From Gemmatimonadales bacterium (GTDB lineage Bacteria > Gemmatimonadota > Gemmatimonadetes > Gemmatimonadales > GWC2-71-9), in contig JBFJCP010000004.1 in assembly GCA_041615815.1 (NCBI GenBank), positions 32,001-96,000 on the forward strand: 64,000 nucleotides of DNA, in the 5' to 3' direction. Below are positions 31,823 through 51,643 of the stretch, piece after piece. How positions within the stretch are numbered: the stretch's first letter is position 1; each line of letters begins with the position of its first letter. The notes beneath the pieces are model-generated. The model was not told the DNA's origin, searched no databases, and saw only the letters and a program-made list of their open reading frames with translations. The position numbers and the translations under genes are program-made.

Positions 31823-31828
31823 TCCCGA

Positions 31829-31990
31829 GGGAAGGCGAGAAAGTCCGGCGGTCGGAGGGTTCGAAGTCGTTCAGCGAGGGCGTGACCCTGGGGGGGCCAC
31901 GCCCTCGCCGCATGATTGGGGGTTCGAGACCCGACGTGCCGTGGCGCCCCCCGTCCCACCGTCGAACCTTCCAGCCTTCCAACCTTCCCT
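31829..31990. repeat. Octamer repeat arrays in inverted orientation between convergent genes
   Basis: GGCGAGAA AGTCCGGC GGTCGGAG GGTTCGAA ... CCGTCCCA CCGTCGAA CCTTCCAG CCTTCCAA CCTTCCCT. Confidence 0.6.
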
Positions 31991-33019: not shown

Positions 33020-33112
33020 GGGGGGGAATCTAATTCGGAGGATGGGCGCATCGGCGGGTGGAGAGGCTCGCACCCGGCGATCGTCTCGATTTGTGATGGG
33101 TGGTGGACTTGG

Positions 33113-33138
33113 GGGGGCGGGTCCGCCGACCCGCCCCC
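33113..33138 (-). terminator. GC hairpin downstream of aceA
   Basis: GGGGGCGGGTC-CGCC-GACCCGCCCCC; no U-tract. Confidence 0.5.
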
Positions 33139-33161
33139 GGGTGAGTGGCTGGGTGGGGCGA

Positions 33162-34469
33162 TCAGCTCGCCTGGCGCACTTGTTTCTGGTCTTCGGCGCC
33201 GAACTGTTCTTCTTCGGTGGATCCCGTCATCGCCAGCGTGGATGACGTGCCACCGGTAATGACCTGGGTGATATCGTCGAAGTATTTGGCGCCAACGAAC
33301 TGCTGGTGCCGCACGGCCTCGTACCCCTGTCCCTCCGACGCGAACTCGCTTTCCTGCAGGTCCGCGTAGGCGGCCATGCCACGCTTGCGGTAGTCCATGG
33401 CTAGCGTGAACATCGCATAGTTCATGGAATGAAATGCGGATAGCGTGACGAACTGGAATTTGTAGCCCATCGCGCCGAGCATGCGCTGGAAGCCCGCGAT
33501 CTCGGTGTCGCTGAGATGCATCTTCCAATTGAAAGAGGGCGAGCAGTTGTACGCTAGCAGCTTGCCTGGGTATCGCGCGTGCATGGCATCGGCAAACTGG
33601 CGTGCCTCGTCGATGTTCGGCGTTGAGGTCTCGAACCACAAGAGATCGGCGTAGGGCGCATAGGCGAGTCCACGGGCAATGGCGGCCTCGATGCCGCTGC
33701 GGACGCGGAGAAACCCTTCCGCCGTGCGCTCGCCGGTGACGAACGGCGCATCATACGGATCGATGTCGTTTGCCAGGAGGCCTGCACTGAGGGCGTCGGT
33801 GCGAGCGATCAGGATCGTGTCGATGCCGCACACATCGGCGGCTAGCCGCGCAGCCACCAGCTTCTTGATGAACTCACGCGTGGGCACCAGGACTTTCCCG
33901 CCCAGGTGGCCGCATTTCTTCAGCGAGGCGAGCTGGTCCTCGAAGTGGACGCCGGCGGCTCCCTGTTGGATCATGTGCTTCATGAGCTCGAACGCGTTCA
34001 GAACCCCGCCGAATCCGGCCTCGGCATCCGCGACAATGGGCACCATCCAGTCAATACTGTTCTGGCCCGACATGTGATGGATCTGGTCGGCGCGGAGCAG
34101 GGCGTTGTTGAGCCGCCCCACGAGATTGGGGACACTGTCCGCGGGGTACAGACTCTGGTCCGGATAGACTTCGCCGGCATCGTTCATGTCACCGGCCACC
34201 TGCCAGCCGCTGAGATAGATCGCCTTGAGCCCAGCCTTCACCTGCTGCATCGCTTGCCCGCCGGTCATGGCACTGAGGGCTGGCACGTACGGATCCGCGT
34301 GCAGCAGGTCCCAGAGTCGGGCCGCGCCGCGGCGGGCCAGAGAATGCTCCACGTGGATGGTGCCAGCGAGGCGACGCACATCGTCTGCGCTGTAAGGACG
34401 CGTGATCCCGTTCCAGCGAGGGTCCTGACTCCAGCGGTGCTCGAGTTGGTTGAAGACAGCGTGATTCAT
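33162..34469 (-). CDS. aceA: Isocitrate lyase
   Basis: [35 protein letters not shown]. Confidence 0.97.
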
Positions 34470-34483
34470 CGAAATCTCATTGG

Positions 34484-36130
34484 TTAGTCGATATGCTCGT
34501 ACGCGGCCACGGTGAGCCACTCGGTGAACTCGTCGTTGGTCATCATCCGCTCGAAGAGGCCTGCGGCGAGCTTCAGCTTCCCGCGGTCTCGCCCGTTCTC
34601 GCAGAGCGTCTGCATCACTTGCCCGATGATCTGCTTGATCAATGTGGGAGTGACGGTCTGTCCATCAGTGAGCTCGGCGCCGTGCTTCACCCACTGCCAC
34701 ACCTGCGACCGAGAGATCTCCGCGGTCGCGGCGTCCTCCATCAGGTGGTAAATCGGAACGCAACCGGTTCCGCTGAGCCAGGCGGCGAGATACTGAACCC
34801 CCACATCGATGTTGTGGCGGAGCCCTTCCTCGGTCACGGCCCCGCTCGGGACACGGAGGAGATCACCCGACGTGGCAAACACGTCTTTCCGTTTCCGGTC
34901 GAGTTGGTTGGGCGTGGGCATGTAGAGGTCGAACACTTCCTTGGCCACCGCAACGAGACCTGGATGCGCCACCCACGTCCCGTCATGTCCCGCGGTCACC
35001 TCGCGCAACTTGTCCTGCCGCACTTTCTCGATCCCACGCCGGTTGGCAACGGGATCGTTCTTGACGGGAATCTGTGCCGCCATCCCCCCCATCGCGTGGA
35101 TACCCCGGCGGTGGCAAGTCCGGATCAACAATTCGACGTACGCGTTGAGGAAGTGCCGGTCCATCGTGACCTGTCCACGGTCGGGGAGCATGAACTTGGA
35201 ACGAGCACGGAATTTCTTGATGAAGCTGAAGATGTAGTCCCACCGTCCACAGTTCAGGCCTGCCGAATGATCCCGCAGCTCCCAGAGGATCTCATCCATC
35301 TCGAACGCTGCCAAGATGTTCTCGATGAGCACGGTGGCTCGGATCGTTCCCCGCCGGAGACCGAGGTGATCTTGGGCGGCATTGAAGACGTCGTTCCACA
35401 GCCGGGCTTCGAGATGCGATTCGAGTTTGGGGAGGTAGAAGTACGGACCGCCTCCACGCTCGGTCAGCGCCACGGCGTTGTGGAAAAAGAAAAGGCCGAA
35501 GTCGAATAGCGACCCCGAAACCGGCGATCCGTCCACGAGGAGGTGCCGTTCATGGAGATGCCAGCCCCGGGGTCGCACGAACAAGGTGGCGAGTTGGTCC
35601 CCAAGCTGATAATGCTTGCCGCTCGGATTGGTGTAGGTGATGGTGCCGCGGACGGCGTCTCGGAGATTGCGCTGTCCATCCACGTTGTTGGCCCAGGTAG
35701 GACTGTTGGAGTCCTCGAAATCGGCCATGTAGACATTCGCCCCCGAGTTGAGGGCGTTGATGACCATCTTACGATCCACCGGGCCCGTGATCTCGACCCG
35801 GCGATCTTCCAGATCGTGGGGGATGGGCGCGACGGTCCACTCACTCTCCCGGATCTCTCTCGTTTCGTTCAGAAAATCCGGCATGACGCCGGCGTCCAAT
35901 TGCTCCTGGACCTCCGCCCGCCGTGCGAGGATTTGCTGGCGCCGGGACTCGAAGGTGCGATGAAGTTCAGCGATGAAGGCCAGAGCCCCTGGGGTAAGGA
36001 TGTCCGCCCACTCGTCGGCCACCGGAGCCGTAACCGTGACTCCCAGGGGCTTGATCTGCGCCGGGTCGAACCGGCCGATGCCGGGTGTCCGTGCCGAGTG
36101 CGTGTCCCTCACGCTGGGGTCAGCGCGCAT
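34484..36130 (-). CDS. aceB: Malate synthase A
   Basis: [46 protein letters not shown]. Confidence 0.97.
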
Positions 36131-36288
36131 GACCATCTCCTGAATCGGGTTCGCTGCTCCCGCTCCCGCACCCAAAGGGGGGGTGGCTTTGCAGGTTCCC
36201 CAGGGCAAATGGCATGCCTGCAACAGGGCCGTGAAAAAGGACCTGAGTAAGGGGGCAAGCGTTGCATGCTCGCAACGGTTTCAGAGCA

Positions 36289-36490
36289 AGAGCGGCACGG
36301 GGATTCGGGGGGAAAGGTGCGACAGGGGGAGCTGCAGATCGGCCGGGAGGGGCGGGAGGGGCTGGGGAAGCGGGATTGGCAATGAACGCAGAAGCGGTAG
36401 TGGCACGAGCGCATGCTCTGCCTCCTCAGCCTCTTTTGCCCATGCTGCCTCCTCTACCCCTCCTGTCCTCTCTGCTTCCGGTCCTTCTCG
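36289..36490. repeat. Degenerate ~9-mer purine-rich and pyrimidine-rich arrays in inverted arrangement
   Basis: G-rich arm (GGGGCGGGA GGGGCTGGG GAAGCGGGA) followed by C/T-rich arm (CTCTGCCTC CTCAGCCTC TTTTGCCCA TGCTGCCTC CTCTACCCC). Confidence 0.5.
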
Positions 36491-36492
36491 TC

Positions 36493-36966
36493 CTACACCA
36501 CGTTCTGCACCGCGAAGCGAAGCACCTTGGGCTTCACGAGGCGCTCGAAGTCCCGATACGCCAGTCGGATGAGTTCGGTGTGGGAACCGGCATTGAAGGC
36601 GATTTCCTCATCCTCCGCCAGGCTCGCCGCGACATAGACATTCAGGTCATAGAGGTTCCCGAAGGGCGGCATGGCGCCCAGCTCGCAGTCGGGGAACAGG
36701 TCCTTGAACTCCGTCTCGGTGGCGAGTTGAACCTTGACGTTGCCCAACACGCCTTTCAGCTGGTCGAAGTCGACGTGGAAGGAAGCCGGCAGTACGGCCA
36801 TCGACATTTTGCCGTCGACTTTGATCATCACCGTCTTTGCCAACTCCCGTCCGGATACATGGGCCGACGCGGCGATCTCTTGAGCCGTATACGCCGGAGA
36901 GTGCCGCATCGTCACGTACTTGATGTGGTTCTCGTCGAGGAACTGCTTGAGCTTGGCGAGGGGCAT
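36493..36966 (-). CDS. YbaK/EbsC aminoacyl-tRNA deacylase family
   Basis: YTAQEIAA, LAKTVMIK, FPDCELGAMPPFG, FNAGSHTE; AAGGAGG RBS. Confidence 0.92.
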   Translation of the reverse strand: MPLAKLKQFLDENHIKYVTMRHSPAYTAQEIAASAHVSGRELAKTVMIKVDGKMSMAVLPASFHVDFDQLKGVLGNVKVQLATETEFKDLFPDCELGAMPPFGNLYDLNVYVAASLAEDEEIAFNAGSHTELIRLAYRDFERLVKPKVLRFAVQNVV

Positions 36967-37068
36967 CGTGACCTCCTTCATCCCGAGGGTTCCGTCGACT
37001 CCCGCGACGGCCGGGCGGTTCTTCTAGCGTACGCTGGCCGGACGCGCACGGCCAGGGGGGCATTTCGA

Positions 37069-37213: not shown

Positions 37214-38092
37214 TCATGGGGCTCGGTGGTCGATGCCAGCTCGCTCGCAAGGAGGGCTCGTCTGAGCATTCGCGAGATAATCGGCCGTGTTCCGAGCACG
37301 GCGGGCCCAAAAGTCCGCCACTGGTCCCAGCCAGCCATTCAGACGGCGATGCGCTTCTGCCGCCTCCCGCGCATACTCGGCTAACCAACGGACGAGTCGT
37401 CCCGGATCCTGCGAGGCCATTGCGTGGAGTGCGTATCGACGCTCGCCCGCCCGCAGCCCCACGCCGAGGTCGCGCGCTGCGCGGCCGACGTCAGAGCGGG
37501 TCAGGATGAGACCGCTTCGTACCGGAGTCAGCATGGTCACCAGGACGTCAGGACGGGCACCCGCGGCGTCCCAGGCCGGGGGCGCACTTCGGAGGTGAAG
37601 CGGCAACGACCCGGAGTATGGCATGTCCCAGGCCTCCCGTTCGAGCACTTCTCGCACGAGCCCGCCCCAGGCAACGTAGGCTGGCGGGCCAGTCTGCTGG
37701 AGTTTGTCGAGGAAGATGGGAACCCAGCTCAGAAGGTGCTCCCACAGCAGGGCGGCGCGGGGCCGGCGGAAGACGGCTGCGCGCTCGGGCGGTGCCTTGC
37801 GCTCGAGGTCGGCGAGGTGGGCGTAGAGGCTCAGGAGGACGGCCAAGTGGTCGGGTTCCGCTGGCGGTGGCTCACCCAGGGCGCGCCAGAATCCGGCGAT
37901 GCGGTCTCGGGCCTCCCCTCCCAGCATGCCTTCGTCGCCGAGGTATACGGACGCGAACGGATAGAGCTCGAACAGAAACAGCCGCGTGTACTCCTCGCTC
38001 GAGGGAACGGGAAGCTCGAGAAGCGCGGCGAGCCGCGCGGTCTCGGGGTGTGGTGGTTCGGCGAGCGCGCCGAGGGCGCGAAGGAGCTCCAT
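37214..38092 (-). CDS. TorD/DmsD family molybdoenzyme chaperone
   Basis: EEYTRLF..PFASVYL, EPDHLAVLL, EHLLSWVP; TAATG overlap with upstream gene. Confidence 0.88.
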   Translation of the reverse strand: MELLRALGALAEPPHPETARLAALLELPVPSSEEYTRLFLFELYPFASVYLGDEGMLGGEARDRIAGFWRALGEPPPAEPDHLAVLLSLYAHLADLERKAPPERAAVFRRPRAALLWEHLLSWVPIFLDKLQQTGPPAYVAWGGLVREVLEREAWDMPYSGSLPLHLRSAPPAWDAAGARPDVLVTMLTPVRSGLILTRSDVGRAARDLGVGLRAGERRYALHAMASQDPGRLVRWLAEYAREAAEAHRRLNGWLGPVADFWARRARNTADYLANAQTSPPCERAGIDHRAP

Positions 38093-40998
38093 TATCTGGT
38101 GACGGGTTCGGGGAGCCGAAAATGCTCCTTGGGTGGTTTCAGGGGGCGCAGCAGCCAGAACGGTCGCCGGGTTCGGTCTGGCGAATAGCGGTGAGCCGGT
38201 CGTGTCTTTTGAAGCCACTGTTGGTACACGATCCGGGCTTTTTCGGTGTCGACGGAAATGTCGCCGTAGGCATCATCGGGCTCCGCGCGTCGCACCCGCA
38301 CTGCCTGATGCCAGCAGTGCTGGCCGGAAATCGGATCCGGATGCACGGGGAAGGTCATGTTTTGGTGCACGCCGGCGTCCGTCCACCAGATCCGGCCCGT
38401 GTCGGGATCGGTAGACGGATACGGTTCCACATTCGTCCTGCGTGCGAGATCCCACGTCGAGCCTCGTTGCTGCAAGGCAACCGTGGCCATGAGCTGACGC
38501 TGGCCGTTGTCGCCCACCTTCCAGCGGCCCATGTGGTGACTGCAGGCCACCACGCCCGGTCGGATCCCTTCCGTCACCCACGCTTTCACCACAAAGTAGC
38601 CGATCTCCGTTTCCACCCGGACCAGTTGTGCGGTGCGGACACCGACTCGCGCTGCGTCCACGGGATGAATCCACAGGGGATTCGTGTGGGCGATCTCATC
38701 GAGCCACTTCGCGTTCGCGCTTCGGGTATGGATGTGCACGGGGAGCCGAAAGGTGGAGATGAGCGGCATCTGCCCGTCTTCGAGCTTGTCGGGATGCACG
38801 TGGCTCGGGAGGTAGGTGGGGACCGTGCATTCCGTCCAGCCCCACCTCGCGAGCGTTCGCGAGTAGAACTCCAGGCGCCCACTAGGCGTGGGAAATCCCC
38901 GGAGGATCTTTCCGTCAATGCGCACGCCAACGGCGCGACGTCCCTCGGCGTCGGGGTCGGGGCTCGGTTGGGGAACGACATTGGGTGACGGGTCTTTGGG
39001 TGCCCTGGTGTATACGCGTCCCAAGTGGTCCTCACCGATGTCCTGCAGGTCGTCGGGAGGAACTTCCTGTGCGTAGATGGGCCCGATCGTCCGCTCGATC
39101 TCGAATGCGCCGTAGCGCCGCATGTACTGGAGCGGTGTGAGTCCTTCGGCTGAAGCCCGTTCGGGCAGTCCGGGAACCGAGTGTTCGAATGCGTAGGCGT
39201 AGTACTCATCCACGGTGAGCTTCTCGCCCGGTGCCTTCTTCGATTCCACATACTTCCGAATTCCCAGTTGGCCGTCCGGATCGATTCGCCATGTGAGGTC
39301 CATCCAGAACTCGTTTTCCTCCCACACTTCTCCGGGGTTCACCTCGCGGGTATCCCGCACCGGCTGATTCATTCGGACGCGTGCGGCCCGGAGTACGGGT
39401 TGGCGAAAGCCGATCCACTGGGCGTCATGCGTTTCGTACGAGTGGAGGTCGTGTCGTTCCGAGCTGTGGCCCATGGGTAGCACGTAATCGGCGAAATACG
39501 CCGTCTCGTTCCACGTGGGTGTGAGGGCGACATGGAGTCCAACGAGCTGTTCGTCTGTGAGGACCTCGATCCAGGAGAAGCCATCGGGGTTGGTCCACAC
39601 GGGGTTGTAGACCCGCGTGAAGTACACGTCGATCCGTCCCCGCCCATCCTTGAGGAAGTGCGGAAGCAGGAACGACAGCTCGTTCATGGCGAGTGGGTAT
39701 TCGAGGGGCCAGGTGAGCTCGTTCCATCGGGGTGGATGCGGCGGCGTGTAGATCGGCCTGGGCACGAACTTGTTCCAGGCATTGGGATAGGTACCGCCCG
39801 GGACGGCGACGGCACCCATTAGAGCATTGAGGAAAAAGAGTGAGCGCGAGACTTGCCAGCCGCCTTCATTACCGGCGGCGGCGCTCCGCCAGTTGTGCGT
39901 GGAGAGCCGGGTCCCGGCGGTCGAGACCACCCGGGCAATCTCCGCGATCGTCTCCGCATCCACGCCGGATTCCCGTGCGGCGAAGTCGAAGGTGTACGAG
40001 CGGTAGCGGTCTTTGAGCGCGCGCTCGAAGTTTTCAAACGTTGGTACGAGATCGGATCGTTCAGCCTCCAGATATTCCTGCCAGTTGAACCACCGGCGCA
40101 CGAACTCCCGATTGTAGAGATTGTGTTGAATGAGGTAATTGGCGACCGCTAAGAGGATCGCGGCCTCCGATCCCGGATACGAGGAGACCCAGTGGTCGGC
40201 GTGGGTCGCCGTGTTGGATAGACGCGTATCGAAGACGATGAGTTTGGCCCCGTTCTGCTTGGCGTCGATCACGCGCTGGGCATGCGGGTTGAAGTAATGA
40301 CCGGTCTCCAGATGGGCTGAGACCAGCAGGATGACCCGCGCGTTGGCGTGATCCGGACTCGGTCGGTCGTAACCCATCCAATACTGATAGCCGGCGCGGC
40401 CGCCCGACGAGCAGACGTTGGTGTGCGAGTTGTGACCGTCCACGCCCCAGGCGGCGAGGATCCTTTCAGTGAAGCCGTCCTCTCCCGGCCTTCCCACGTG
40501 ATACATGACTTCGTTGTGACGGTTTTCGGCGATGGCCCTCCCAATGCGGCGCGCGATGTCGCTCAGCGCCTCCTCCCAGCTCACCTGGACCCACGAGCCT
40601 TCCCCCCGAGCACCCGCCCGTTTGAGCGGATAGAGAATGCGATCGGGATCGGTGACCTGATTGATCGTCGCCGGTCCCTTGGCGCAGTTCCGTCCTCTGG
40701 AGCCTGGGTGCTCCGGGTTCCCCTCGAACTTGCGAACCTGGTGCGTTGCTTGGTCGACGTATGCCAGCAGCCCGCAGGCGGATTCACAGTTGAAGCAGGT
40801 GGTGGGCACGAGCATGTACCGATGTTCCCGCCGCTCCGGCCAGGCACGCGAGTCGAGTTCGACCCAGTGGTCCCATCGCTCTTTGGGTGGGTACGCCGCG
40901 AGGTGGATGCGGCTCGGACCGGGGTAGAACGTCTCGCCGCGGGCTTCCGTGGCCGCTCGGGCAGCGCTGAGGCGTCGGTTCAGTTCGTCGAGCGTCAT
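38092..40998 (-). CDS. Mo/W-bisPGD oxidoreductase catalytic subunit (Psr/Ttr/Arr/Soe-like), no Tat signal
   Basis: TTCFNCESACG...NCAKG [4Fe-4S], SHTNVCSS putative Cys ligand, ADYVLP, HTRSAN, WIHPVDA. Confidence 0.9.
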   Translation of the reverse strand: MTLDELNRRLSAARAATEARGETFYPGPSRIHLAAYPPKERWDHWVELDSRAWPERREHRYMLVPTTCFNCESACGLLAYVDQATHQVRKFEGNPEHPGSRGRNCAKGPATINQVTDPDRILYPLKRAGARGEGSWVQVSWEEALSDIARRIGRAIAENRHNEVMYHVGRPGEDGFTERILAAWGVDGHNSHTNVCSSGGRAGYQYWMGYDRPSPDHANARVILLVSAHLETGHYFNPHAQRVIDAKQNGAKLIVFDTRLSNTATHADHWVSSYPGSEAAILLAVANYLIQHNLYNREFVRRWFNWQEYLEAERSDLVPTFENFERALKDRYRSYTFDFAARESGVDAETIAEIARVVSTAGTRLSTHNWRSAAAGNEGGWQVSRSLFFLNALMGAVAVPGGTYPNAWNKFVPRPIYTPPHPPRWNELTWPLEYPLAMNELSFLLPHFLKDGRGRIDVYFTRVYNPVWTNPDGFSWIEVLTDEQLVGLHVALTPTWNETAYFADYVLPMGHSSERHDLHSYETHDAQWIGFRQPVLRAARVRMNQPVRDTREVNPGEVWEENEFWMDLTWRIDPDGQLGIRKYVESKKAPGEKLTVDEYYAYAFEHSVPGLPERASAEGLTPLQYMRRYGAFEIERTIGPIYAQEVPPDDLQDIGEDHLGRVYTRAPKDPSPNVVPQPSPDPDAEGRRAVGVRIDGKILRGFPTPSGRLEFYSRTLARWGWTECTVPTYLPSHVHPDKLEDGQMPLISTFRLPVHIHTRSANAKWLDEIAHTNPLWIHPVDAARVGVRTAQLVRVETEIGYFVVKAWVTEGIRPGVVACSHHMGRWKVGDNGQRQLMATVALQQRGSTWDLARRTNVEPYPSTDPDTGRIWWTDAGVHQNMTFPVHPDPISGQHCWHQAVRVRRAEPDDAYGDISVDTEKARIVYQQWLQKTRPAHRYSPDRTRRPFWLLRPLKPPKEHFRLPEPVTR

Positions 40999-41008
40999 CG
41001 TCTATTCC

Positions 41009-42571
41009 TCAGGCCAGCGGCACGGACTGTCCAGCCTGCACGTAGGCGTGTTCGTGGGCCAGGAGGCCGGCGAGTGCCAGCGGAACCGCGGCGACGCCGA
41101 TCCAGGGAGCCGCGGCCCCGCCGAGGACGAGCACCGCCCCGACCCAGAAGAACATGCGGTAGCGACCATTGGTCATTTCCCAGCTCGCCAGCCGTGCGTG
41201 TGCCGTGGGGTGGGTGAGGCTGGCTTCCCCGGCCACCATGAGCAGGTGCACGACACTGCTGCCGGACAGGAGCCAGGTCACGGCGTTCACCGCGGTTGGC
41301 TCGAACTGCGCCGCCAAGGGAAGAAGCGTGGCGGATCCGGCGAGGACGGCTTGGACGAGGAGGTGTGGTGGAAGGAGCGGGTTTTGCCACAGGTCCCGGG
41401 CTTTGGCCTGTGCGAACAGGTAGGCCGTGTAGACCGCCGTGAGCGCTCCCAATGGGAATCCGGCGATGATGAGCCACGTCTGCCATTCACTCTCGCCGGC
41501 GAGCGTGGCCAGGAAGTGGAGTGCAAGGACTAGCGAGTACCCACCGATGATGTAGGCGCCCTTGACCAACCAGCTCGACCGTTGTGAGTGGGTGAAGATG
41601 AGATGGAAGCGCTCGGGGTGTTCCAGGTCCCAGAGAAGCAACGCGCCCGTGGCGGCCAGAAAGATGCCGCCCAGCACTGGTGCCGCCCACTGCCACAGGG
41701 GACTCGCGCTTCCAATCACCCCCAGCGCCAAGAGGAGCGCAGGAATCAGATAGGCCCCGGCGGCGATGCCTTTGGTCCAGGTGTAGAGGCTGACGCGCCA
41801 ATCCCACGGTGCTTGGTGCGGCACGTCGTAGGATAGGATGGCGGCGGCGGAGCTGTTGGCCGGTCCCGGATGCCCCGACACCACGTTGTTGCTGCCGTGC
41901 CCTCGTTCGCTCCACATGAAGAGGCCGCCCTCGGGCCGCGTTGCCGCGATCGGATCGAGGGTGGCTTGGTGGGCGCCTTTATAGAACAGTTTGGGCCGTG
42001 TCTCTTTTTCCGGTCGCCTGACGGTCACGACATCCCGTTTGACGTAGTGCGACACGGGAGAGCCCGGGTCGTTCAGGTCGCCCACCAGGATCGCTTCGGT
42101 GGGGCAGACGACGACGCAGGCCGGCTCCAGTCCCATGTCAAGCCGATGTGCGCAGAAGTTGCACTTTTCGGCTGCGTGGTCGGCTGGATTGATGAAGATG
42201 GCGTCGTAGGGACATGCCGCAATGCACGCCTTGCAGCCGATGCAGATGGCCTTGTGGAAGTCGACGATGCCGTCGGGCCGCCGATACATGGCGGCGGTGG
42301 GGCAGGCGATGACGCATGGAGGGTCATCGCATTGGTTACAGCGGGTCACCTGAAAAGCCCGCCGCACGTTGGGATACGTCCCGATGTCGACGTACTTCAC
42401 GTAGGTCCGATTGACGGAGAGTGGGACTTCGTTCTCCGACTTGCAGGCGGTGCTACAGGCGTGACAGCCGATGCAGCGGCTGTGATCGATGACCTTCGCC
42501 CATTGGGGGGGGAGGGTTTCGAGTCGCGGTGGTGCCGCCCAGTTCGTCGGCGCCTGCGGTGCAGCCGTCAT
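41009..42571 (-). CDS. 4x[4Fe-4S] (NrfC/PsrB) fused to NrfD/PsrC membrane anchor
   Basis: CIGCHACSTAC, CNQCDDPPCVIACP, CIGCKACIAACP, KCNFC..PACVVVCP; DLEHPERF, SSWLVKGA, YTAYLF, multiple TMs. Confidence 0.92.
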   Translation of the reverse strand: MTAAPQAPTNWAAPPRLETLPPQWAKVIDHSRCIGCHACSTACKSENEVPLSVNRTYVKYVDIGTYPNVRRAFQVTRCNQCDDPPCVIACPTAAMYRRPDGIVDFHKAICIGCKACIAACPYDAIFINPADHAAEKCNFCAHRLDMGLEPACVVVCPTEAILVGDLNDPGSPVSHYVKRDVVTVRRPEKETRPKLFYKGAHQATLDPIAATRPEGGLFMWSERGHGSNNVVSGHPGPANSSAAAILSYDVPHQAPWDWRVSLYTWTKGIAAGAYLIPALLLALGVIGSASPLWQWAAPVLGGIFLAATGALLLWDLEHPERFHLIFTHSQRSSWLVKGAYIIGGYSLVLALHFLATLAGESEWQTWLIIAGFPLGALTAVYTAYLFAQAKARDLWQNPLLPPHLLVQAVLAGSATLLPLAAQFEPTAVNAVTWLLSGSSVVHLLMVAGEASLTHPTAHARLASWEMTNGRYRMFFWVGAVLVLGGAAAPWIGVAAVPLALAGLLAHEHAYVQAGQSVPLA

Positions 42572-42803
42572 CGGCGGTTCTCTCCACAGCAAGTCTGATC
42601 CGAGCGGCAGCGCGCAAGCTCGCTCGCTGGCGCGCGCTCGACCACCGCTGAACTATGCCTTCAGCGAGGTCGCGTCAAGACCGAGGAAGCCTGATCCCAA
42701 CGGCATGCAAGCGTTCCGGAATCGAATGATCAACCCATCGATGAAGCGAATCAGTTGTGAGTGACGTTTTTCTCGAGGGGAATGGTGCGGCGATCGTCGT
42801 CTT

Positions 42804-43106
42804 CTACGGAAGGTCGCAGCTTCGAATGCATCCCAGGATCGCGGTGACCTTGGGTTCGGTGATCCAGTAATAGACGTTCGCGCCTACGCGACGCGAGTCG
42901 ACGATGCCTCGCCCTTTGAGGGTGCTCAACTGCTGCGAGACGGCGGCTTGCGTGGCCCCGCAGAGATTCTGCAGTTGGGACACGGTCAGCTCGCCATGCT
43001 CGAGTGCATCCAGAATGCGCAGGCGGAGTGGGTGACCGAGGCACTTGATGACAGAGGCTGCCCGGTCGAGCACGTCGGGATCGAGCGAATCGAACGAAGT
43101 GGTCAT
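42804..43106 (-). CDS. ArsR/SmtB family regulator (Cys-containing)
   Basis: KCLGHPLRLRIL, ELTVSQL, AVSQQLSTLK, VYY, C-terminal CIRSC. Confidence 0.9.
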   Translation of the reverse strand: MTTSFDSLDPDVLDRAASVIKCLGHPLRLRILDALEHGELTVSQLQNLCGATQAAVSQQLSTLKGRGIVDSRRVGANVYYWITEPKVTAILGCIRSCDLP

Positions 43107-43178
43107 GGTTCCTAGCCTACGTCACGGCTGCGCGGAGTCTGTCTTTCGCGGCCTGTTGGTCTCCGTCCACGGGCAGCC

Positions 43179-43805
43179 TCAGGTCTGCTGTTTGACCTTG
43201 GGTGTCTTCTCCACCGGGTAGCCGCGCTCGAGCCAATCGACCATGCCGCCGAACACGAGCCGCGCGTCCTTGCCCGCTCGCTGCATGATGGACGCCACGA
43301 ACGAGCTTCGAACCTGATCGCCGCACACCAGCGCCAACGGCTTCTGATCGTCCACGCCTTCGAATTTGTCCCACGGCTCGGTCCATTCGAGCACTTCCGA
43401 GCCCGGAATGTGGCCGTACCGGAATTCGAAGCCCTCGCGCGTGTCGATGACGCGGAAGGTATCGAGTCCGTCTTTGAGTTCGTCCACGTTCATGAGGGGC
43501 AGTGTGGCGGTTGGGAAGCCGGTGGCCTTCCAGCCCTTGAGCCCGCCCTCCAGATACCCCGCCACCGTGAAACCGGCCTTGGTCAGAAGATCGACGGCCA
43601 CCTTCGCAATGGGCTCGGGCTCGGCGTGGACGATGTAGGTAGCGCTCGTGGGAAGTGACAACTCGGCCCGATCCGCCAGGTCGGCGCGATTGAACTGGAA
43701 GTTCACCGCTCCGGGCACGTGCTCCGTCGCAAATGGCTTGGGCGGGCGCATGTCGAGAATCACGGCGCCTGCCGCTGCTGCGGCCCGGACGGCTTGCGGT
43801 ATCAT
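43179..43805 (-). CDS. Tandem rhodanese-domain sulfurtransferase
   Basis: LDMR..EHVPGA (domain 1, no Cys); IDTRE..GHIPGS, VCGDQVRS, GGMVDW (domain 2). Confidence 0.88.
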   Translation of the reverse strand: MIPQAVRAAAAAGAVILDMRPPKPFATEHVPGAVNFQFNRADLADRAELSLPTSATYIVHAEPEPIAKVAVDLLTKAGFTVAGYLEGGLKGWKATGFPTATLPLMNVDELKDGLDTFRVIDTREGFEFRYGHIPGSEVLEWTEPWDKFEGVDDQKPLALVCGDQVRSSFVASIMQRAGKDARLVFGGMVDWLERGYPVEKTPKVKQQT

Positions 43806-44602
43806 ACGCCGGCTCCCTTCAGCTCTTCTCTCGAGATCAGGCCGAGGTTGTACGACTTGATGCGCTCAAAGTTTTCGGGAAACGGTTTGGCGGTTTCATG
43901 CACGAACTTGCCAAATGCCTTGGCGTTGGGCTGCCGCATGGCGAGGTTGAACTGCTTTTCAAAGGCGATCGTCGACACCGCCTTGCCGCTCATGTTGACG
44001 CCGCCACACGTCGAACCGCCGTAATGCCCCGGGTACACCTCGACGTAATCAGGGAGGGTGAATAACTTCTCGGTCACGCTGCGGTAGAGCGTCTCGGCTC
44101 GGGCCGTCTCGTCCATGACGTCCACCGCCTGGTCTCCCAGGAGTAGGTCCGGCCGTCCCACATCACCGACGAACAGCGCGTCGCCCGTGAGCACGAACCA
44201 CGGATCGCTGGAGCGCGCGGTATCGGTTACGAGGAACGAGGTGTGCTCCGGCGTGTGGCCTGGCGTGTGGATCGCTTCGAGCCGGATCCCGCCGATCTCG
44301 ATGGTCTCACCGTCTTTGATTGGCGTGAAATCGTACGTCACAAGGCCCTGAGCGGACTCGTGCAGGTAGTGTGGCACCCCGTTCATCTCTGCGAGCTCAC
44401 GGGCGCAGGACACGTAATCGGCATGCACATGCGTTTCGTACACGCCCACGATGCTCAGGCCGAGATCGGCAGCCTCCAATACGTAGAAGTCAGTCCCGAG
44501 GTCTTCGATGGGATCGACGATGACGGCCTCTTTGGCCCGCGGGCATCCTAACAGATACGACGCCTGCGCGAGCGGCTCGTGCCGGAATTGTTTCATGATC
44601 AC
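43802..44602 (-). CDS. MBL-fold persulfide dioxygenase (CstB-like PDO domain)
   Basis: ETHVHADY, HTPGHTPEH, TGDALFVGDVGRPDL, PGHYGGSTCG. Confidence 0.85.
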   Translation of the reverse strand: MIMKQFRHEPLAQASYLLGCPRAKEAVIVDPIEDLGTDFYVLEAADLGLSIVGVYETHVHADYVSCARELAEMNGVPHYLHESAQGLVTYDFTPIKDGETIEIGGIRLEAIHTPGHTPEHTSFLVTDTARSSDPWFVLTGDALFVGDVGRPDLLLGDQAVDVMDETARAETLYRSVTEKLFTLPDYVEVYPGHYGGSTCGGVNMSGKAVSTIAFEKQFNLAMRQPNAKAFGKFVHETAKPFPENFERIKSYNLGLISREELKGAGV

Positions 44603-44605
44603 GGC

Positions 44606-44857
44606 TCAGTCCTCCTCTTCGACTTTCCGCATGTAGAACACAAGCACACCGTCGCCTTCCTCATGCCACTCGAGAAGCTCATTTCCCGTGTCCTCCGCCC
44701 ACGCCGGGAAGTCCGCGATGGACCCGCGGTCTGTGGCGAGGATTTTGAGAATGTCCCCGTCGTCGAGGGAGCGCATTTCTTTGGCGGCCTTCACCACCGG
44801 CATGGGGCAGAGGAGCCCGCGGGCATCGAGGATCTTGGTTTCTTGTACGTCGGGCAT
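44606..44857 (-). CDS. tusA: Sulfur carrier TusA family
   Basis: LDARGLLCPMPVVK, DFPAWAEDTGNELL. Confidence 0.93.
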   Translation of the reverse strand: MPDVQETKILDARGLLCPMPVVKAAKEMRSLDDGDILKILATDRGSIADFPAWAEDTGNELLEWHEEGDGVLVFYMRKVEEED

Positions 44858-44944
44858 CTCATCTCTCCGCTAATGACCTGTCATACGTGTACCATCACGC
44901 CCGTCCGGCTGATCCCGAGTCATGGGGGACGGTCGGAGCGGGCC

Positions 44945-45505
44945 TCACACGAATACCGTCACGTGTGACTTGCGAGCCTCCGAAAGGAATGCGGCAGCGC
45001 CCGCGAACTCCACACCATCGATGAAATCGTCTTCTTCGTATTCAAAGACGTCCATCGTCATCTGGCAGGCAATGAGCCGCACATCCAATTCCCGGGCGGC
45101 ATCCAGGAGCTCGCGAATCGTGGCCACCTTCTTTTTCTTGAACTTCGCCTTCATCATCCCGGTGGCCATGCGGGTCATCCCGGGCATCGCGGTCAGTATG
45201 TCCGGCATGGGTACAGGCATGGGCATGCCCGGATTCCCCACGGGTGACACTTTGAGGAGGTTCTCGAAATCCTTGTGGATGACGTTCAGGCCGTAAAACG
45301 TGAAGAACACCGCTGCGTCCATCCCCGCGGCGGCGGCTGCCGTTGCGAGAATCAGGGGTGGATACGCCCAGTCCAGCGTGCCCTTGGATGCGATGATGCG
45401 GGCGTTCTTGCGCGCGGGATCTCGCTTGAATGCCCGCTGGATCTCCTCGCGGACGATGGTGCGAACGGCTTCCTCGGTGAGTCCGGTCTGATTGGTCTCC
45501 AACAT
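44945..45505 (-). CDS. DsrE2-like (DsrE/DrsE family) sulfur carrier
   Basis: KGTLDWAYPPLILA, FFTFYGL, LIACQMTMDVF, GAAAFL. Confidence 0.9.
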   Translation of the reverse strand: MLETNQTGLTEEAVRTIVREEIQRAFKRDPARKNARIIASKGTLDWAYPPLILATAAAAAGMDAAVFFTFYGLNVIHKDFENLLKVSPVGNPGMPMPVPMPDILTAMPGMTRMATGMMKAKFKKKKVATIRELLDAARELDVRLIACQMTMDVFEYEEDDFIDGVEFAGAAAFLSEARKSHVTVFV

Positions 45506-45580
45506 CGTGGCCTCGCGGGTGGTGTGGGCTGGCCAGGGAGTGGGTACGGAGAATCTGGCGTCCCGCTCGATTGGTGCACC

Positions 45581-45628
45581 ATAATATACGAGAAATGTAA
45601 TATTATAGTATATCATTATTATTGTCAA
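45581..45628 (-). promoter_or_regulatory. AT-rich promoter with 26-bp imperfect palindrome (candidate ArsR operator)
   Basis: TTGACA-N17-TAATAT on minus strand; ATAATAT-N12-ATATTAT at 45581-45606. Confidence 0.7.
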
Positions 45629-45648
45629 CCGACCTGTCAGGCGAGGGC

Positions 45649-47226
45649 ATGACTCCAGTGCATGCAGACGGCGCGCGCCGGATTCGAGTGGCCGACGTGG
45701 TGGCCGGTGGGAGCGTGGCCCTCGTGCTCGCCCCGCAGTCGCTGGCATTTGCCGAGCTGGCTGGTCTGCCGGCCTACCACGGGCTGTATGCGGCGGCCAT
45801 ACCCCCGATCGTGGCTGCCGTCTTTGCCTCCTCCCCCTATTTGCAGACCGGTCCCACGGCCATGACGAGCCTGCTCACCTTCGGCGCCCTGAGCTCACTC
45901 GCCGCAGTCGGCACTCCGAGCTATGTGGCGCTGGCGGCGTTGCTCGCGCTGGTCGTGGGGTTGCTGCGAGTCGGGTTGGGCATGGTGCGGTTGGGGTGGG
46001 TGGCCTACCTGATGTCGCGTCCCATAATCACGGGTTTCACCACGGGTGCGGCCATTCTGATCCTGGCGTCCCAGCTGCCCACGGCACTCGGGGTCGCGGC
46101 GCCGGAGGGGCGCCTTCTGGTTCGTGCATGGTGGGCGCTCACGCACGTGCGCGAGTGGGAGATCGGGGCCCTCGTCCTTGCCGTGGCCACCGTCACGATC
46201 GTGCTGGGCGGTCGCAAGCTCCACGCGTTGTTCCCCGGGGTGCTCGTCGCGCTGGCGTTGGCCTTGGTGGCGAGTGTGCTCATGGGTTACCAGGGATCGG
46301 TCGTGGGATCGGTGCCCAGCGGTCTTCCCCCGGTGTCCCTGGCGCTCCCATGGACCGAGCTGCCCCGTTTGCTCGTGCCGGGTGCCGTGATCGCCCTGGT
46401 CGGGTTTGCCGAGCCCGCGGCGATCGCTCGTACCTACGCGACGCAGGACCGGCAGCCCTGGAGTCCGGATCGGGAGTTCGTGAGCCAGGGTGCCGCCAAT
46501 TTCGCCGCGGGGCTCTCGGGTGGGTTCCCCGTGGGCGGATCGTTCTCCCGCACGTCCCTCAATCGTCTTGCCGGAGGGCGGACGCGGTGGAGCGGTGCTG
46601 TCACGGGTGTCGCGGTCCTCGCGTTTCTACTCGTTGCTGGCATCCTCGCGCCACTCCCAAGGGCCGTTCTCGGGGCGATCGTGATTTCGGCGGTCGTCAC
46701 GCTGATCCAGTTCAAGCCGCTTGTCCGACTCTACCAATACTCGCGCCCGCAGGCGCTGGTAGCGTGGACCACGTTTGTCGCTACGCTCGCCCTGGCCCCC
46801 CGGATCGAGCGAGCGGTGCTGGTGGGGATCGGACTGGCGATCTTCATTCACTTGTGGCGGGAGCTTCGCCTTCATGTTTCCACCCGATACCAGGGGACCA
46901 CCCTGCGCCTCGCGCCGAAGGGCGTCCTCTTCTTTGCCTCGGCGCCGAACCTGGATGAAGCCTTTCTGCGCGAGCTGGCAGCGCATCCGGAGACGGAGCG
47001 CGTCGTCGTGGATCTCTCGGGTCTCGGTCGGATCGACTACACGGGAGCGCTCGCGCTGAAGGACGTCACCGATGACGCCCGGGGGGCCGGCCTCAAGGTC
47101 GAGTTGACCGGCGTTCCGCCGCAGGCACGCCGCGTCCTCGTCCGCGTCATCGGCGCAGACTGGCCGCTGCTCCGCTCACACAAATGGGACGTTCGCGCTG
47201 ACCCGGTCGTGCCTCCCACCCCATAG
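45649..47226 (+). CDS. SulP family anion transporter with STAS domain
   Basis: PQSLAFAELAGLP..GLYAA, GPTA, GSFSRT, LFFASA, IDYTG. Confidence 0.93.
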   Translation: MTPVHADGARRIRVADVVAGGSVALVLAPQSLAFAELAGLPAYHGLYAAAIPPIVAAVFASSPYLQTGPTAMTSLLTFGALSSLAAVGTPSYVALAALLALVVGLLRVGLGMVRLGWVAYLMSRPIITGFTTGAAILILASQLPTALGVAAPEGRLLVRAWWALTHVREWEIGALVLAVATVTIVLGGRKLHALFPGVLVALALALVASVLMGYQGSVVGSVPSGLPPVSLALPWTELPRLLVPGAVIALVGFAEPAAIARTYATQDRQPWSPDREFVSQGAANFAAGLSGGFPVGGSFSRTSLNRLAGGRTRWSGAVTGVAVLAFLLVAGILAPLPRAVLGAIVISAVVTLIQFKPLVRLYQYSRPQALVAWTTFVATLALAPRIERAVLVGIGLAIFIHLWRELRLHVSTRYQGTTLRLAPKGVLFFASAPNLDEAFLRELAAHPETERVVVDLSGLGRIDYTGALALKDVTDDARGAGLKVELTGVPPQARRVLVRVIGADWPLLRSHKWDVRADPVVPPTP

Positions 47227-48039: not shown

Positions 48040-48077
48040 CGGGCCTCCGTCCCGACGCGGGACGGAGGCCCGTGTTT
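48040..48077 (+). terminator. Rho-independent terminator-like hairpin
   Basis: 15-bp perfect stem CGGGCCTCCGTCCCG-ACG-CGGGACGGAGGCCCG followed by TGTTT. Confidence 0.7.
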
Positions 48078-48123
48078 GTACGCGGCATGTTGCCCTCGTG
48101 CCTGCGGCCGTCCAAAATTCGGC

Positions 48124-50346
48124 ATGAAACGACGCGAAGGGCTCCGGAAGCTCATGGGTCAGGAGCGGTACATCGACGACCTGCTGGTCGAGGGCTGCCT
48201 CTGGGGTATGACGGTTCGGAGCCCTGCGCCGCGTGGCCGTATCCGCGCGGTGCGGTTTGGGAGGGACATCGATTGGTCGCAGATCGTCGTCGTGGATCAC
48301 ACCGATCTCCCTGGTCCCAATGAGACTCTCCTCATCGAGCCGGACCAACCGGTGCTGGCTGCGCACTATGTCCGTCACGTGCACGAGCCGGTGCTGGTGG
48401 TGGCCCATCCTTCGCGAGACATGGCACGGCGCGCGGCCCGCGCCATCGAGATCGATGTCGATCCGGACCCACCGGCCTTGGATTTTCGGGTCCCGCCCAG
48501 TCCCGACCAGATTCAATACGGCCGTGACAACGTCCTGAAACATCTGACGATCACCAAAGGGGACGTGGAGCGTGCCTTGGCCGCCGCGCCACACGTCATC
48601 GAAGGCACCTACGAAACCGGCGCTCAAGAGCACGTCTACCTCGAGAACCAGGGCATGATTGCCTACGTCGAGGACGGCGTGCTCGTCGTGCGGGGCTCCA
48701 TGCAGTGCCCATACTACGTGCTCAAGGCGTTGACCCACGCACTTGCGCGTGACGAGGCTCGGGTACGGATCGTTCAGGCGCCGACCGGTGGAGGGTTTGG
48801 TGGCAAAGAAGAGTACCCGTCCACGGTCGCGCTCCACGCGGCGTTGCTGACCCTCAAAGCCGAGCGGCCGGTCAAGCTCATCTACGATCGGGCCGAGGAC
48901 ATGGCTGCCACGACGAAGCGTCACCCGGCGTGGGTGCGCCATCGCACGGGTGTCGACGACGGTGGCCGACTACTCGCCCAGGACATCGAGGTCCGGATCA
49001 ACGGTGGGGCGTACGTGACCCTATCGCCGGTCGTGTTGAGCCGCGCAGTGATCCATGCGGCTGGCCCGTATGCGTGCGACCACGTGCGGATCGACGGGAA
49101 GGCGATCCTGACGAATGCGGTGCCCTTTGGCGCGTTTCGTGGATTCGGCGCCCCGCAGACCCAGTTTGCCAACGAGCGCCACATGGACGTCGTGGCCCGC
49201 GCCCTTGGTATCGATCCTGTCGAACTCCGACGAATCAACCTCATTCGTGATGGGCAGAGCACCTCGACGGGTCAGGTCATCCACGACGGGACGGACCGCG
49301 TGGCGGTGATGGAGCAGGCGCTGGACGCGGCTCGGTATCACGAAAAGCGCCGGGAACACATCGCGTTCAACGCCTCGCACCCGACACACCGTCGTGGCAT
49401 CGGGTTCGCGACCTTTTACCACGGGGCAGGCTTCACGGGGAGCGGCGAGGTGATGTTACGATCACGTCTCCATGTGGCGGGACGGGCCGATGGCACGATC
49501 GAGATCTTGAGCGCCAATATCGAAATGGGCCAGGGGACGATCACCGTGTTCACGCAGATCGCGGCGGATCGGTTAGGATACGCGCCCGCGGATATCGTCA
49601 TCGCCGAAGCGGATACGGCCCGCGTCCCCAACTCGGGGCCAACCGTCGCCTCTCGAACGTCGATGATCGTGGGCCGGTTACTGGAGCGCGCCTGCGATGA
49701 CTTGCGAGCCCAACTGGGGCTGCCCAACGCGAGCCGAGGGGCGGCCGTCAAGGACGCTATCCTGAGGTGGCATCGTGCCAACCCCGGGGAGGCGCTCGTG
49801 GGTCGCGCGACGTATGAGAAGCCCCGTGACGTCCAGTGGGACGACGCGACGTATCGCGGTGATGCCTATGGGACCTTTGCGTGGGCGACGTACGTGGCGG
49901 AGGTGGAGGTCGATCTCCGAACCTATGTGGTGCGCGTCATCGACTTTGTGGCGGTACAAGAGATTGGAAGGGTGATCAACGAGACGCTTGCTCGGGGGCA
50001 GGTGCAGGGTGGGGTGGTGCAGGGCATCGGTTGGGCATTGATGGAAGAATGCCAGTGGCAGGACGGCGCCATGGCCAACAATCAACTCACGAATTACATC
50101 ATTCCCACGAGCGATGATGTTCCCGCCATCCAGGTCGAGTTTCTCGAGACCCCATATCCTTACGGAGCCAAGGGGGCCAAAGGGCTGGGTGAGCTACCCA
50201 TCGATGGGCCGGCTCCCGCCGTGGTGAACGCCATCGAGGCCGCCACCGGTGCGGACGCTCGCGTGATTCCGGTAACCCCGGAGCGTCTCATGCTGCTGAT
50301 GGAGCGGTCGCTGGCCGGCGGACCCCGGGGCGCTGGGAGGACGTGA
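48124..50346 (+). CDS. Xanthine dehydrogenase molybdopterin-binding subunit
   Basis: [36 protein letters not shown]; purine cluster context; start uncertain. Confidence 0.88.
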
Positions 50347-50816
50347 ACGTGTCGGAGACCATCAACATCACCTTCACCCTGAACGGTGCCAACCTGGCGC
50401 TGGACGTGAGCCCGGCGGAACGGCTCTTGGACGTGCTCCGTTATCGGCTCGATCTGACGGGTACCAAGGAGGGGTGCGCGGAAGGTGAGTGCGGCGCGTG
50501 CACGGTGTACCTGGACGGGGTCCCCGTGAACGCCTGTTTGGTTCCTGCGTATCAAGTACGGGGAAGTCGGGTGGAGACCATCGAGTCGTTGGACGGTGCA
50601 GCTCTCGACCCCCTGCTCGAGAGCGGCGCCACGCAATGCGGCGCTTGCACCCCCGGAGTCGTGATGACCGCGTGGTGGATACGTCAGAACACGGATCTGT
50701 TGGAGACCCATAGCATCCGCGAGCTGATGGCCGGCAATCTCTGCCGGTGCACCGGCTACGACGGGATCGTCGATGGGATCGAGGCGATGATCCGAAGAGC
50801 TCGGAGCGAGCGGTGA
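50343..50816 (+). CDS. Xanthine dehydrogenase 2Fe-2S subunit
   Basis: [32 protein letters not shown]. Confidence 0.92.
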
Positions 50817-51643
50817 GCGTTCGCCTTCCGCGCACGCTGGACGAGGGTCTCGCGATGCTGGCGGATACGCCAGGCGCTGTCCCGATGGCGGGAGGCACCG
50901 ATCTGCTGGTTCACTGGCCCCAGCGTCTCGACCACCACGGCGTGACCTACGTCGACCTGTGGAAGGTGGATGAGCTCCGGCCGCTCCGGTGGACCGACGA
51001 CGCACTGATGCTCGGCGCGCTGACCACCTACTGGGACGTGATGCGCGATGCCCGCGCCCGGGAGCTGTTCCCGCTCTTGATGCATGCGGCGAGGCAAGTC
51101 GGTGCCGTCCAGATCCAGGCGCGGGGCACGTGGGCTGGCAACATCGTGAACGCCTCCCCTGCCGCGGACGGCGTGCCCGTCCTCATGGCGTACGATGCCG
51201 TCGTTGTCCTGCGCTCTCTCGATGGCGAAGTTGAGGTGCCACTCGCCGACTTCTATCTCGGCTACAAGAAGATGCGACGTCGTCCAGACCAGCTGGTCAC
51301 CGCGATCCGCATTCCCCGACGCCGATACGAGTACGAGATGTTCGAGAAGGTGGGCTCGCGGCGTGCCCAAGCCATCACCAAGATCGGTGTTGCTGTGACG
51401 AGGGCCGACGGTGCATGGCGAGTCGTCGCGAACAGTATGGCGCCCACGGTCCGGCGATGTTTGGCTCTCGAGGATCTGCTCTCGCGCCGGGTCCCCATTG
51501 CGTCGCCGTCCGATCTCGTGCCGGCGATCCGCGCGGACGTGTCTCCCATCGACGACATTCGGTCCACGGCCGCGTATCGGGAGCGGGTCATGGCGCGGGT
51601 ACTGTATTATGAGCTCGCCGCGATCTGTGACTGGTGGCGATAA
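50813..51643 (+). CDS. Xanthine dehydrogenase FAD-binding subunit
   Basis: [37 protein letters not shown] overlap. Confidence 0.9.

Follow-up and report, generated by a model that had tools for sequence, protein, structure and literature searches.

An orphan Tat-less molybdoenzyme complex and a putative split CstB in a persulfide-handling gene island of a Gemmatimonadales bacterium

What does a membrane-bound molybdenum (Mo) enzyme do amid genes for persulfide handling? This question is raised by a nine-gene island at positions 37,214 to 47,226 of a 64,000-nucleotide stretch from a Gemmatimonadales bacterium (assembly GCA_041615815.1, contig JBFJCP010000004.1, positions 32,001 to 96,000; the whole stretch is here called the window), in which genes for the sulfur carriers DsrE2 and TusA, a persulfide dioxygenase (PDO), a double rhodanese and an ArsR regulator stand in line with those of a Mo complex and its chaperone and opposite a SulP permease gene. 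The island joins a known detoxification module to a known orphan respiratory complex, all of its parts being of known kinds; new here are the putative split of CstB, the predicted flip of the membrane anchor and the suggested link to sqr, the gene of sulfide:quinone oxidoreductase (SQR). At about even confidence, the island is read as the later half of an aerobic route from sulfide to sulfate: the Mo complex would serve as sulfite:menaquinone oxidoreductase, and SulP would subsequently export the sulfate.

A nine-gene island with a predicted split CstB

All nine genes are intact, with Pfam scores above cut-off, and the originally predicted layout of eight co-oriented genes divergent from sulP across an AT-rich promoter was confirmed, including the AT-rich stretch (Table 1). 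On the minus strand, from dsrE2 onward, the genes are set apart by 87, 3, -4, 72, 232 and 10 bp and the chaperone gene is entered by a one-base stop/start overlap; given its 232 bp, the gap between arsR and the gene of the fused iron-sulfur (FeS) and anchor subunit (BC) may hold a second promoter. Cys147 of DsrE2 and Cys17 of TusA are each kept in 20 of 20 aligned homologues. SulP is a predicted exporter of sulfate or another oxyanion, both substrate and direction being part of the prediction.

Table 1. Features of the island, in coordinates of the window
Feature	Position	Strand	Evidence
SulP/SLC26 anion permease with STAS domain	45649-47226	+	PF00916 (E 5e-79), PF01740; under TIGR00815 cut-off
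AT-rich divergent promoter with palindrome-like site, candidate ArsR operator	45575-45640	.	
DsrE2-type sulfur carrier, Cys147	44945-45505	-	PF13686 (E 4e-50); NF047629 206 bits against a cut-off of 210
TusA sulfur carrier, CPMP motif with Cys17	44606-44857	-	PF01206
Metallo-beta-lactamase-fold (MBL) PDO, putative dioxygenase half of a split CstB	43802-44602	-	PDB matches
Double rhodanese (pseudorhodanese and rhodanese)	43179-43805	-	PF00581, twice
ArsR/SmtB regulator	42804-43106	-	NF033788 above cut-off
Fused 4x[4Fe-4S] subunit and NrfD/PsrC anchor (BC), 56 kDa	41009-42571	-	PF13247, PF03916
Mo/W-bis(pyranopterin guanine dinucleotide) (bisPGD) catalytic subunit (A), Tat-less, 'Unk'/PSRLC3-type	38092-40998	-	profiles, structure model, trees
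TorD/NarJ-like private chaperone (D)	37214-38092	-	PF02613 (E 1e-12)

Among PDB entries, the PDO matches best 3R2U (E 2e-47), which we take to be S. aureus CstB, and 3TP9 (E 5e-46), with ETHE1 reaching merely 3e-18, and the double rhodanese matches residues 277-473 of 3TP9. Aligned to 3R2U, the PDO possesses Q13, H58/H60, H116, D141, G196 and C199-G200, i.e., the His-His-Asp iron site and the Gly-x-x-Cys-Gly loop (C201-G202 in CstB). The sole Cys of the double rhodanese sits in its second domain, whereby C161, R123 and R166 are invariant in 8 of 8 cases and C161 with R123 (-38) and R166 (+5) reproduces the spacing of CstB (C408, R370, R413), a correspondence drawn from spacing and from 3TP9 and not from a direct alignment with CstB. 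PDO and double rhodanese are encoded by two overlapping genes in the window and its relatives and are fused into one protein in two further loci (L014, L016) and in Acidobacteriota loci. The residues tied to CstB self-S-sulfonation (PMC12934615) are kept in the island pair, which is assigned as a split CstB with its mechanistic residues retained; a standard ETHE1-type, sulfite-releasing PDO was ruled out for the island gene by the PDB matches and the fused homologues. CstB was reported to yield thiosulfate and no sulfite (PMC12934615), and by analogy the product of the split enzyme is likely thiosulfate rather than sulfite. The conversion of persulfide to sulfite, as originally predicted for the PDO, therefore needs an extra rhodanese step. 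As a naturally split CstB, the pair offers a test of whether the sulfonate shuttle works between two proteins. Elsewhere, the genome encodes a further MBL-fold protein (L108:6165-7319, i.e., G000:C37:18164-19318), which carries a rhodanese domain at its N-terminus and shares 34% identity with the PDO of the island.

The cst operon of S. aureus reads tauE-cstR-cstA-cstB-sqr (PMC12934615). It shares with the island the CstB-type PDO and rhodanese pair, a cysteine-bearing repressor and an oxyanion transporter. TusA and DsrE-type carriers are common to both, in S. aureus as domains of CstA, and the cst transporter gene is likewise divergent. The island differs in that CstB is split, ArsR takes the place of CstR and SulP that of TauE, sqr lies elsewhere and a quinone-linked Mo complex is added. 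This part-for-part match, with the Mo enzyme in the place of sqr, would suit an SQR stand-in that runs the chemistry of polysulfide reductase (Psr) in reverse and turns sulfide into carrier-bound persulfide for TusA, DsrE2 and CstB, as SQR does in staphylococcal cst. The reaction would yield -36 kJ/mol (this and all further energies are estimates from redox potentials), and Psr of W. succinogenes is described to oxidise sulfide in vitro. Moreover, SQR of the searched type was found within 7 kb in none of 80 family loci, and of the 54 genomes of two families, 43 hold the Mo enzyme and one holds SQR. These absences weigh little, however, as the query would miss distant SQR types, and SQR accompanies the full island in seven of eight genomes, apparently tied to the same ArsR, so that we regard the stand-in as quite unlikely.

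Family and orientation of the Mo complex

The catalytic subunit counts 968 residues, carries an FS0 motif and is devoid of a twin-arginine translocation (Tat) motif at its N-terminus. Its Cys196 aligns with the Mo-ligating Cys of PsrA and ArrA, and its predicted pocket is formed by Arg170, His192 and Arg371, whereby Arg170 is common to SoeA and ArxA, is absent from PhsA and corresponds to Arg in ArrA and His in PsrA. No NCBIfam family reaches its cut-off (PhsA 200 of 694 bits, ArrA 112 of 1600), and the structure model (predicted local distance difference test score 90) is nearest to ArrA, the top match, and PsrA, at 18-22% identity. The family comprises at least 8000 clusters at 90% identity, all 8000 scored candidates having passed. 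The closest named homologues belong to Gemmatimonadales (83% identity, L027), and cultured ones are found in Thermomicrobium roseum (62.5%), Rhodococcus jostii RHA1 (57.5%, plasmid pRHL3) and haloarchaea (51-54%).

Trees were computed with 29 rows under LG+G4 and 18 rows under a mixture model, drawn from 47 aligned rows, the remainder being left out for redundancy and computing time. SoeA rows were picked by motif and context (sat, apr, DmsC-type anchor) and not by accession, ArrA was represented by ArxA only and itself compared via 6CZ7, and the TtrA row was taken from a Proteus record, none having been found in 121 gammaproteobacterial genomes. Both trees united the Mo subunit, its cultured homologues including the RHA1 pRHL3 protein and the Sulfurovum enzyme in a clade with 100/100 support, to which Tat-bearing enzymes such as that of Azoarcus KH32C are sister (99/99 and 99/97). 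SoeA, PhsA, TtrA and ArxA fall outside this clade, and the deep relations among Unk and these four are unsettled in the trees. The original prediction had likened the complex to SoeABC, an assignment that had to be given up: identity is 23-26%, a grouping of the family with SoeA to the exclusion of the Tat-bearing Unk enzymes was rejected (approximately unbiased test, p=0.018), and the closest relatives of this separate clade are Tat-bearing and Psr-like. Membership in PsrA/PhsA was rejected upon missing Tat export, a gene order other than ABC and an equivalog score far under cut-off, and with TtrA and ArrA/ArxA the subunit neither groups nor scores. Phylogeny, named as a check by the original prediction, placed the subunit in the Unk clade, apart from SoeA, PhsA, TtrA and ArxA. 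SoeABC resembles the island complex as a Tat-less, Cys-ligated Mo-bisPGD enzyme with an N-in eight-helix anchor and an Arg/His/Arg pocket, and both are sometimes found beside SulP (L130); SoeABC differs by its order ABC and DmsC-type anchor, as compared to fused BC followed by A and an NrfD-type anchor in the island. PsrABC/PhsABC and ArrAB share fold and Cys ligand (2VPW, 6CZ7) and differ by 18-27% identity and Tat export.

The Unk clade was described by Duval et al. 2008 (PMC2500031), with the gene order BCA, a subgroup without Tat and with a 60 kDa B subunit, and a list naming Rhodococcus RHA1, Chloroflexus, green sulfur bacteria and Sulfurovum. Wright et al. 2014 (PMC3906813) reported psrBCA operons that lack Tat and have B and C fused in Marine Group A and Marine Group II. 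For green sulfur bacteria, sulfite formed by Dsr has been proposed to be oxidised by the complex (PMC3906813; PMC6338057). The name PSRLC3 is used in PMC6338057 and PMC5473276, and unnamed Cys-ligated lineages are mentioned by Wells et al. 2023. With these the island shares the B(C)A order, the missing Tat signal, a B subunit of about 60 kDa (the B-C fusion) and the Cys ligand; its 56 kDa FeS-NrfD fusion is encoded directly upstream of A, and the subunit groups with listed members, RHA1 being equated with its entry in the list by strain and not by the old accession YP_709030.1. By sequence, the Mo enzyme is assigned to the Tat-less, BC-fused branch of the Unk clade, and its family probably corresponds to PSRLC3/psrBCA, an equation made through overlapping species lists and the two-gene Tat-less layout and not through sequences of those groups. 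In print, the function is either left unassigned or given as oxidation of sulfite for green sulfur bacteria and as reduction of polysulfide for the marine groups, and neither the link to CstB, TusA, DsrE2, SulP and ArsR nor the flipped anchor occurs in the passages on these enzymes. No publication describing the island gene combination was found, subscription journals lying outside the coverage; the claim of an uncharacterised combination thus holds for the island, the Mo complex itself having been in print since 2008.

The closest relative with any physiology is the group I 'Psr' of Sulfurovum and Sulfurimonas (psrBCA-D-E; PMC10045233), which shares 38% identity, the family signatures and the B-C-A-D order and differs by a Tat signal, separate B and C and an anchor predicted N-out, so that it would be periplasmic. 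This kinship, the Cys-ligated Psr-like fold, thiosulfate as the CstB product and the annotation of marine homologues as polysulfide reductases speak for a cytoplasmic thiosulfate or polysulfide/persulfide reductase, which would use quinol to remove the thiosulfate formed by CstB, or persulfide at low O2. Expression of the Sulfurovum-type enzyme, which is highly transcribed under sulfur reduction and not significantly induced (PMC10045233), backs it weakly, the S. mangrovi enzyme presumably belonging to group I. Against a reductase stand the energetics, the reaction being uphill from menaquinol by +36 to +63 kJ/mol at a heme-free anchor, the sulfide that would appear inside a cell respiring with heme-copper oxidases, the presence of the enzyme in Rhodococcus jostii, an aerobe, and the pocket Arg170, unlike PsrA and PhsA; we consider it unlikely. 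In general, Psr-type reductions can need proton motive force (PMC6303296). Frameshifts interrupt the Mo gene of Sulfurovum mangrovi as recorded (L105:8830-12178) and that of two further genomes (G010 and G022; L112:9280-12046 and L113), possibly as assembly errors.

Wherever a locus extends far enough, a BC fusion precedes the Mo gene (62 of 62 loci). According to loop charges, the fused-form anchor and SoeC are N-in and the Sulfurovum and Azoarcus anchors N-out, a pattern sharpest in the RHA1, Halomicrococcus and SoeC rows; a hydropathy scan found seven of eight helices in the window's protein. The Sulfurovum A gene carries a twin-arginine signal in frame upstream of its frameshift. The anchor thus appears to be inverted between the periplasmic and the cytoplasmic branch, for which the tree gives no order, though the outgroup is Tat-bearing. 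Missing Tat and N-in loop charges like those of SoeC predict that the catalytic subunit faces the cytoplasm, in support of the cytoplasm-facing, quinone-linked complex proposed originally.

Gene neighbourhoods, regulation and host genome

The neighbourhood survey covered the best 80 genome loci of the family (65-83% identical; Gemmatimonadota, Acidobacteriota, Chloroflexota, Actinomycetota, Binatia and others), 37 of which have 7 kb on both sides. These 37 hold BC (37), rhodanese (20), PDO (19), chaperone (16), SulP (13), TusA (6), DsrE2 (5), a sulfate-binding protein (4), TauE (2), YeeE (1) and SQR (0), seven of the 37 being closely related Binatia; the neighbours change with lineage, but most of them either generate sulfite or transport oxyanions. 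At least one gene for a persulfide enzyme or a sulfur transporter lies within 7 kb in 30 of the 37, across five phyla, and together with RHA1 and a haloarchaeon this bears out the originally predicted sulfane-sulfur handling and its conserved linkage. The PDO adjoining the Mo gene is of two kinds, one with the CstB-type loop and one of ETHE1 type, which indicates repeated recruitment. Seven relatives (G001, G010, G015, G019, G131, G167, G171) keep all nine genes in several gene orders, the first four of them in three further orders, and the clustering is therefore not chance. A fixed nine-gene unit across phyla was rejected: the complete set occurs in 2 of the 80 loci (L027 is the same contig as G001), and because this arrangement is in the minority the island is seen as modular, assembled on a core of two genes. 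In RHA1 the row reads MBL, DsrE-like, TusA, BC, A; the Halomicrococcus locus holds an MBL-rhodanese and TauE, Natrinema no such neighbour and T. roseum just a CsoR-like regulator, and in two Chloroflexota loci (L001, L060) genes for ArsR, TusA, DsrE2 and Hdr-like proteins come after the Mo complex and probably form an sHdr cluster. At one locus (L017:6157-8292), genes for a short-chain dehydrogenase/reductase and a HisD-like protein lie directly upstream of BC-A-D-SulP; the latter may be a sulfopropanediol dehydrogenase, which NCBIfam did not confirm.

The same survey bears on whether the substrate could be a different one, be it another sulfur oxyanion, an S-sulfonate or an oxyanion without sulfur (arsenate, for instance), in which case common regulation or the supply of cofactor would account for the sulfur neighbours. 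TusA is also a sulfur donor for the molybdenum cofactor, ArrA is the top structural match, the Tat-bearing Azoarcus KH32C relative resides in an arsenic cluster, and 7 of the 37 loci are without a sulfur neighbour. However, in a scan of 110 neighbour proteins, the neighbours that recur in the Tat-less family included no arsenic genes, and sulfur genes appear beside the Mo enzyme repeatedly, with PDOs that are not orthologous and transporters from three families, leaving such a substrate very unlikely. The Azoarcus complex itself (L106:1-15136) adjoins arsA, ACR3 and a PhnD-like sensor system and is possibly an arsenic enzyme.

Among 251 genomes of the phylum, the Mo enzyme was found in 61 (one a Tat-type relative), SQR in 45, the sulfite-releasing Xsc in 19 (16 of these with the Mo enzyme), a close PDO orthologue in 8 and SoeA in none. 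The close PDO orthologue adjoins the Mo gene in all eight carriers, seven of which possess type III SQR; in the window's family SQR is present in 11 of 14 genomes with the Mo enzyme as compared to 20 of 99 without.

Regulation may tie the island to sqr. Between dsrE2 and sulP, the GC content drops from about 64% in the surroundings to 17-28% in the AT-rich stretch (40-bp windows), and a sigma-70-like match (45628-45600, minus strand) points at dsrE2. A matrix built from the island promoters of eight other genomes ranks the island site second genome-wide (shuffle p 0.018) and the sqr promoter site 11th in the window's genome. For the sqr promoters of seven island-bearing genomes, uncorrected shuffle p values were 0.046 (own genome), 0.003, 0.005, 0.041, 0.053, 0.14 and 0.91, the AT-richest window used in the last case not including the site, and for three genomes without the island they were 0.03, 0.34 and 0.86. 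The ArsR subfamily of the island directly precedes sqr in five island-less genomes (L160, L163, L164, L166, L167), and one of five arsR-sqr upstream regions passed the operator test. A shared regulon of island and sqr under the same ArsR is suggested, the operator results being mixed. Cys93 of ArsR is present in 12 of 12 close homologues and Cys22 and Cys97 in 10 of 12; the BigR model scores 54 of 155 bits, the conserved cysteines being present and the first not at the BigR position. ArsR is a predicted persulfide or thiol sensor.

The host genome is 95.7% complete. On another contig (L107:6210-9358; G000:C2:114209-117357), the first gene of an sqr-tusE-dsrE2-rhodanese operon encodes a type III SQR that scores above the NCBIfam cut-off, so that the original statement on missing sulfur oxidation genes holds for sqr in the window and not in the genome, where dsrA, aprA and SoeA were not found, soxB was found only under cut-off and the one CCG-domain protein is GlcF-like. 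Four COX1-family genes, an ActB-like gene of alternative complex III and the futalosine pathway to menaquinone are present. A 387-residue sulfite-oxidase-fold protein with a twin-arginine-like N-terminus (G000:C2:234055-235218) could oxidise sulfite outside the membrane. Within the window, a MarR-family gene (29667-30236) has AT-rich palindrome-like sites at both ends (29599-29659, 30187-30222), and 4 kb from the island lies a Pyr_redox_3 flavoprotein gene (31991-33073), whose product resembles YpdA-type thiol disulfide reductases. In the flanks (30416-36981, 48076-51643), glutamate dehydrogenase, isocitrate lyase and malate synthase genes were recognised by their sequences; the flanks also encode a YbaK/ProX-type editing protein, which adjoins the island in G001 and G002 as well, and a three-gene xanthine-dehydrogenase-family cluster.

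A candidate sulfite:menaquinone oxidoreductase

The preferred reading of the Mo complex as a sulfite:menaquinone oxidoreductase assumes that initially SQR would convert sulfide to persulfide, carried on TusE, DsrE2, TusA and small thiols. Persulfide would inactivate the ArsR repressor, whereby both promoters would open, and the split CstB would use O2 to form thiosulfate from two persulfides. Next, a rhodanese of the island or of the sqr operon would split thiosulfate into sulfite and carrier-bound persulfide, the latter being recycled. The cytoplasm-facing BC-A complex would then oxidise sulfite to sulfate and reduce menaquinone, passing electrons on to alternative complex III and heme-copper oxidases, and finally SulP would export the sulfate. 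Of the originally predicted route from persulfide via sulfite and sulfate to export, sulfite oxidation thus persists as the likeliest task of the complex and the first step changes, as thiosulfate would be formed. Sulfite is favoured as substrate because it best suits all neighbourhoods (CstB with rhodanese, ETHE1-type PDO with YeeE, Hdr-like genes and, from published work, Dsr), a pocket rich in Arg and the energy yield with menaquinone, sulfite oxidation giving -85 kJ/mol. Arg170 in common with SoeA and ArxA, the SoeC-like topology, the menaquinone and COX1-family genes of a host in which neither SoeA nor AprA was found, and the co-occurrence of the Mo enzyme with SQR and the close PDO orthologue are counted in favour as well.

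Several points weigh against this reading. CstB makes no sulfite, so that thiosulfate splitting is an added, inferred step; the closest relatives for which physiology is on record, Tat-bearing enzymes of Campylobacterota, carry the annotation polysulfide reductase, and the Mo enzyme is no nearer to SoeA than to other Cys-ligated families. The seven loci without a sulfur neighbour belong here as well, as do the 53 of 61 phylum genomes whose Mo-enzyme match comes without an island-type PDO orthologue, and the genome counts are not phylogenetically independent. A link to taurine-derived sulfite was rejected, Xsc not being enriched with the Mo enzyme inside two families (p 0.30). Exported sulfite could be handled by the sulfite-oxidase-fold protein, and no assay of the Mo enzyme family was found in the literature covered, i.e., outside subscription journals.

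As sulfite:menaquinone oxidoreductase, the complex would match SoeABC in function and stem from another branch. Extended to the whole family, the Tat-less Unk/PSRLC3 complex might be a second, independently evolved cytoplasmic sulfite:quinone oxidoreductase, derived from a flipped periplasmic Psr-like complex whose anchor became fused to the FeS subunit, a proposal to which we give somewhat less than even confidence. A sediment survey found SQR and type III PDO to be common in Gemmatimonadota and no SoeABC (PMC12345210), a gap that the island is a candidate to fill; with it, oxygen-breathing heterotrophs likely could finish the conversion of toxic sulfur to sulfate. The Mo family is very large and has had no assigned function since 2008, and with the same cluster being located on pRHL3 of the cultured R. 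jostii RHA1, its function is directly testable. If the reading is true, the complex would provide the energy-yielding last step from sulfide to sulfate in Gemmatimonadota, Acidobacteriota, Chloroflexota, Actinomycetota, Binatia and haloarchaea, and in marine SAR406 and Marine Group II the supposed 'polysulfide reductases' would run in the opposite direction.

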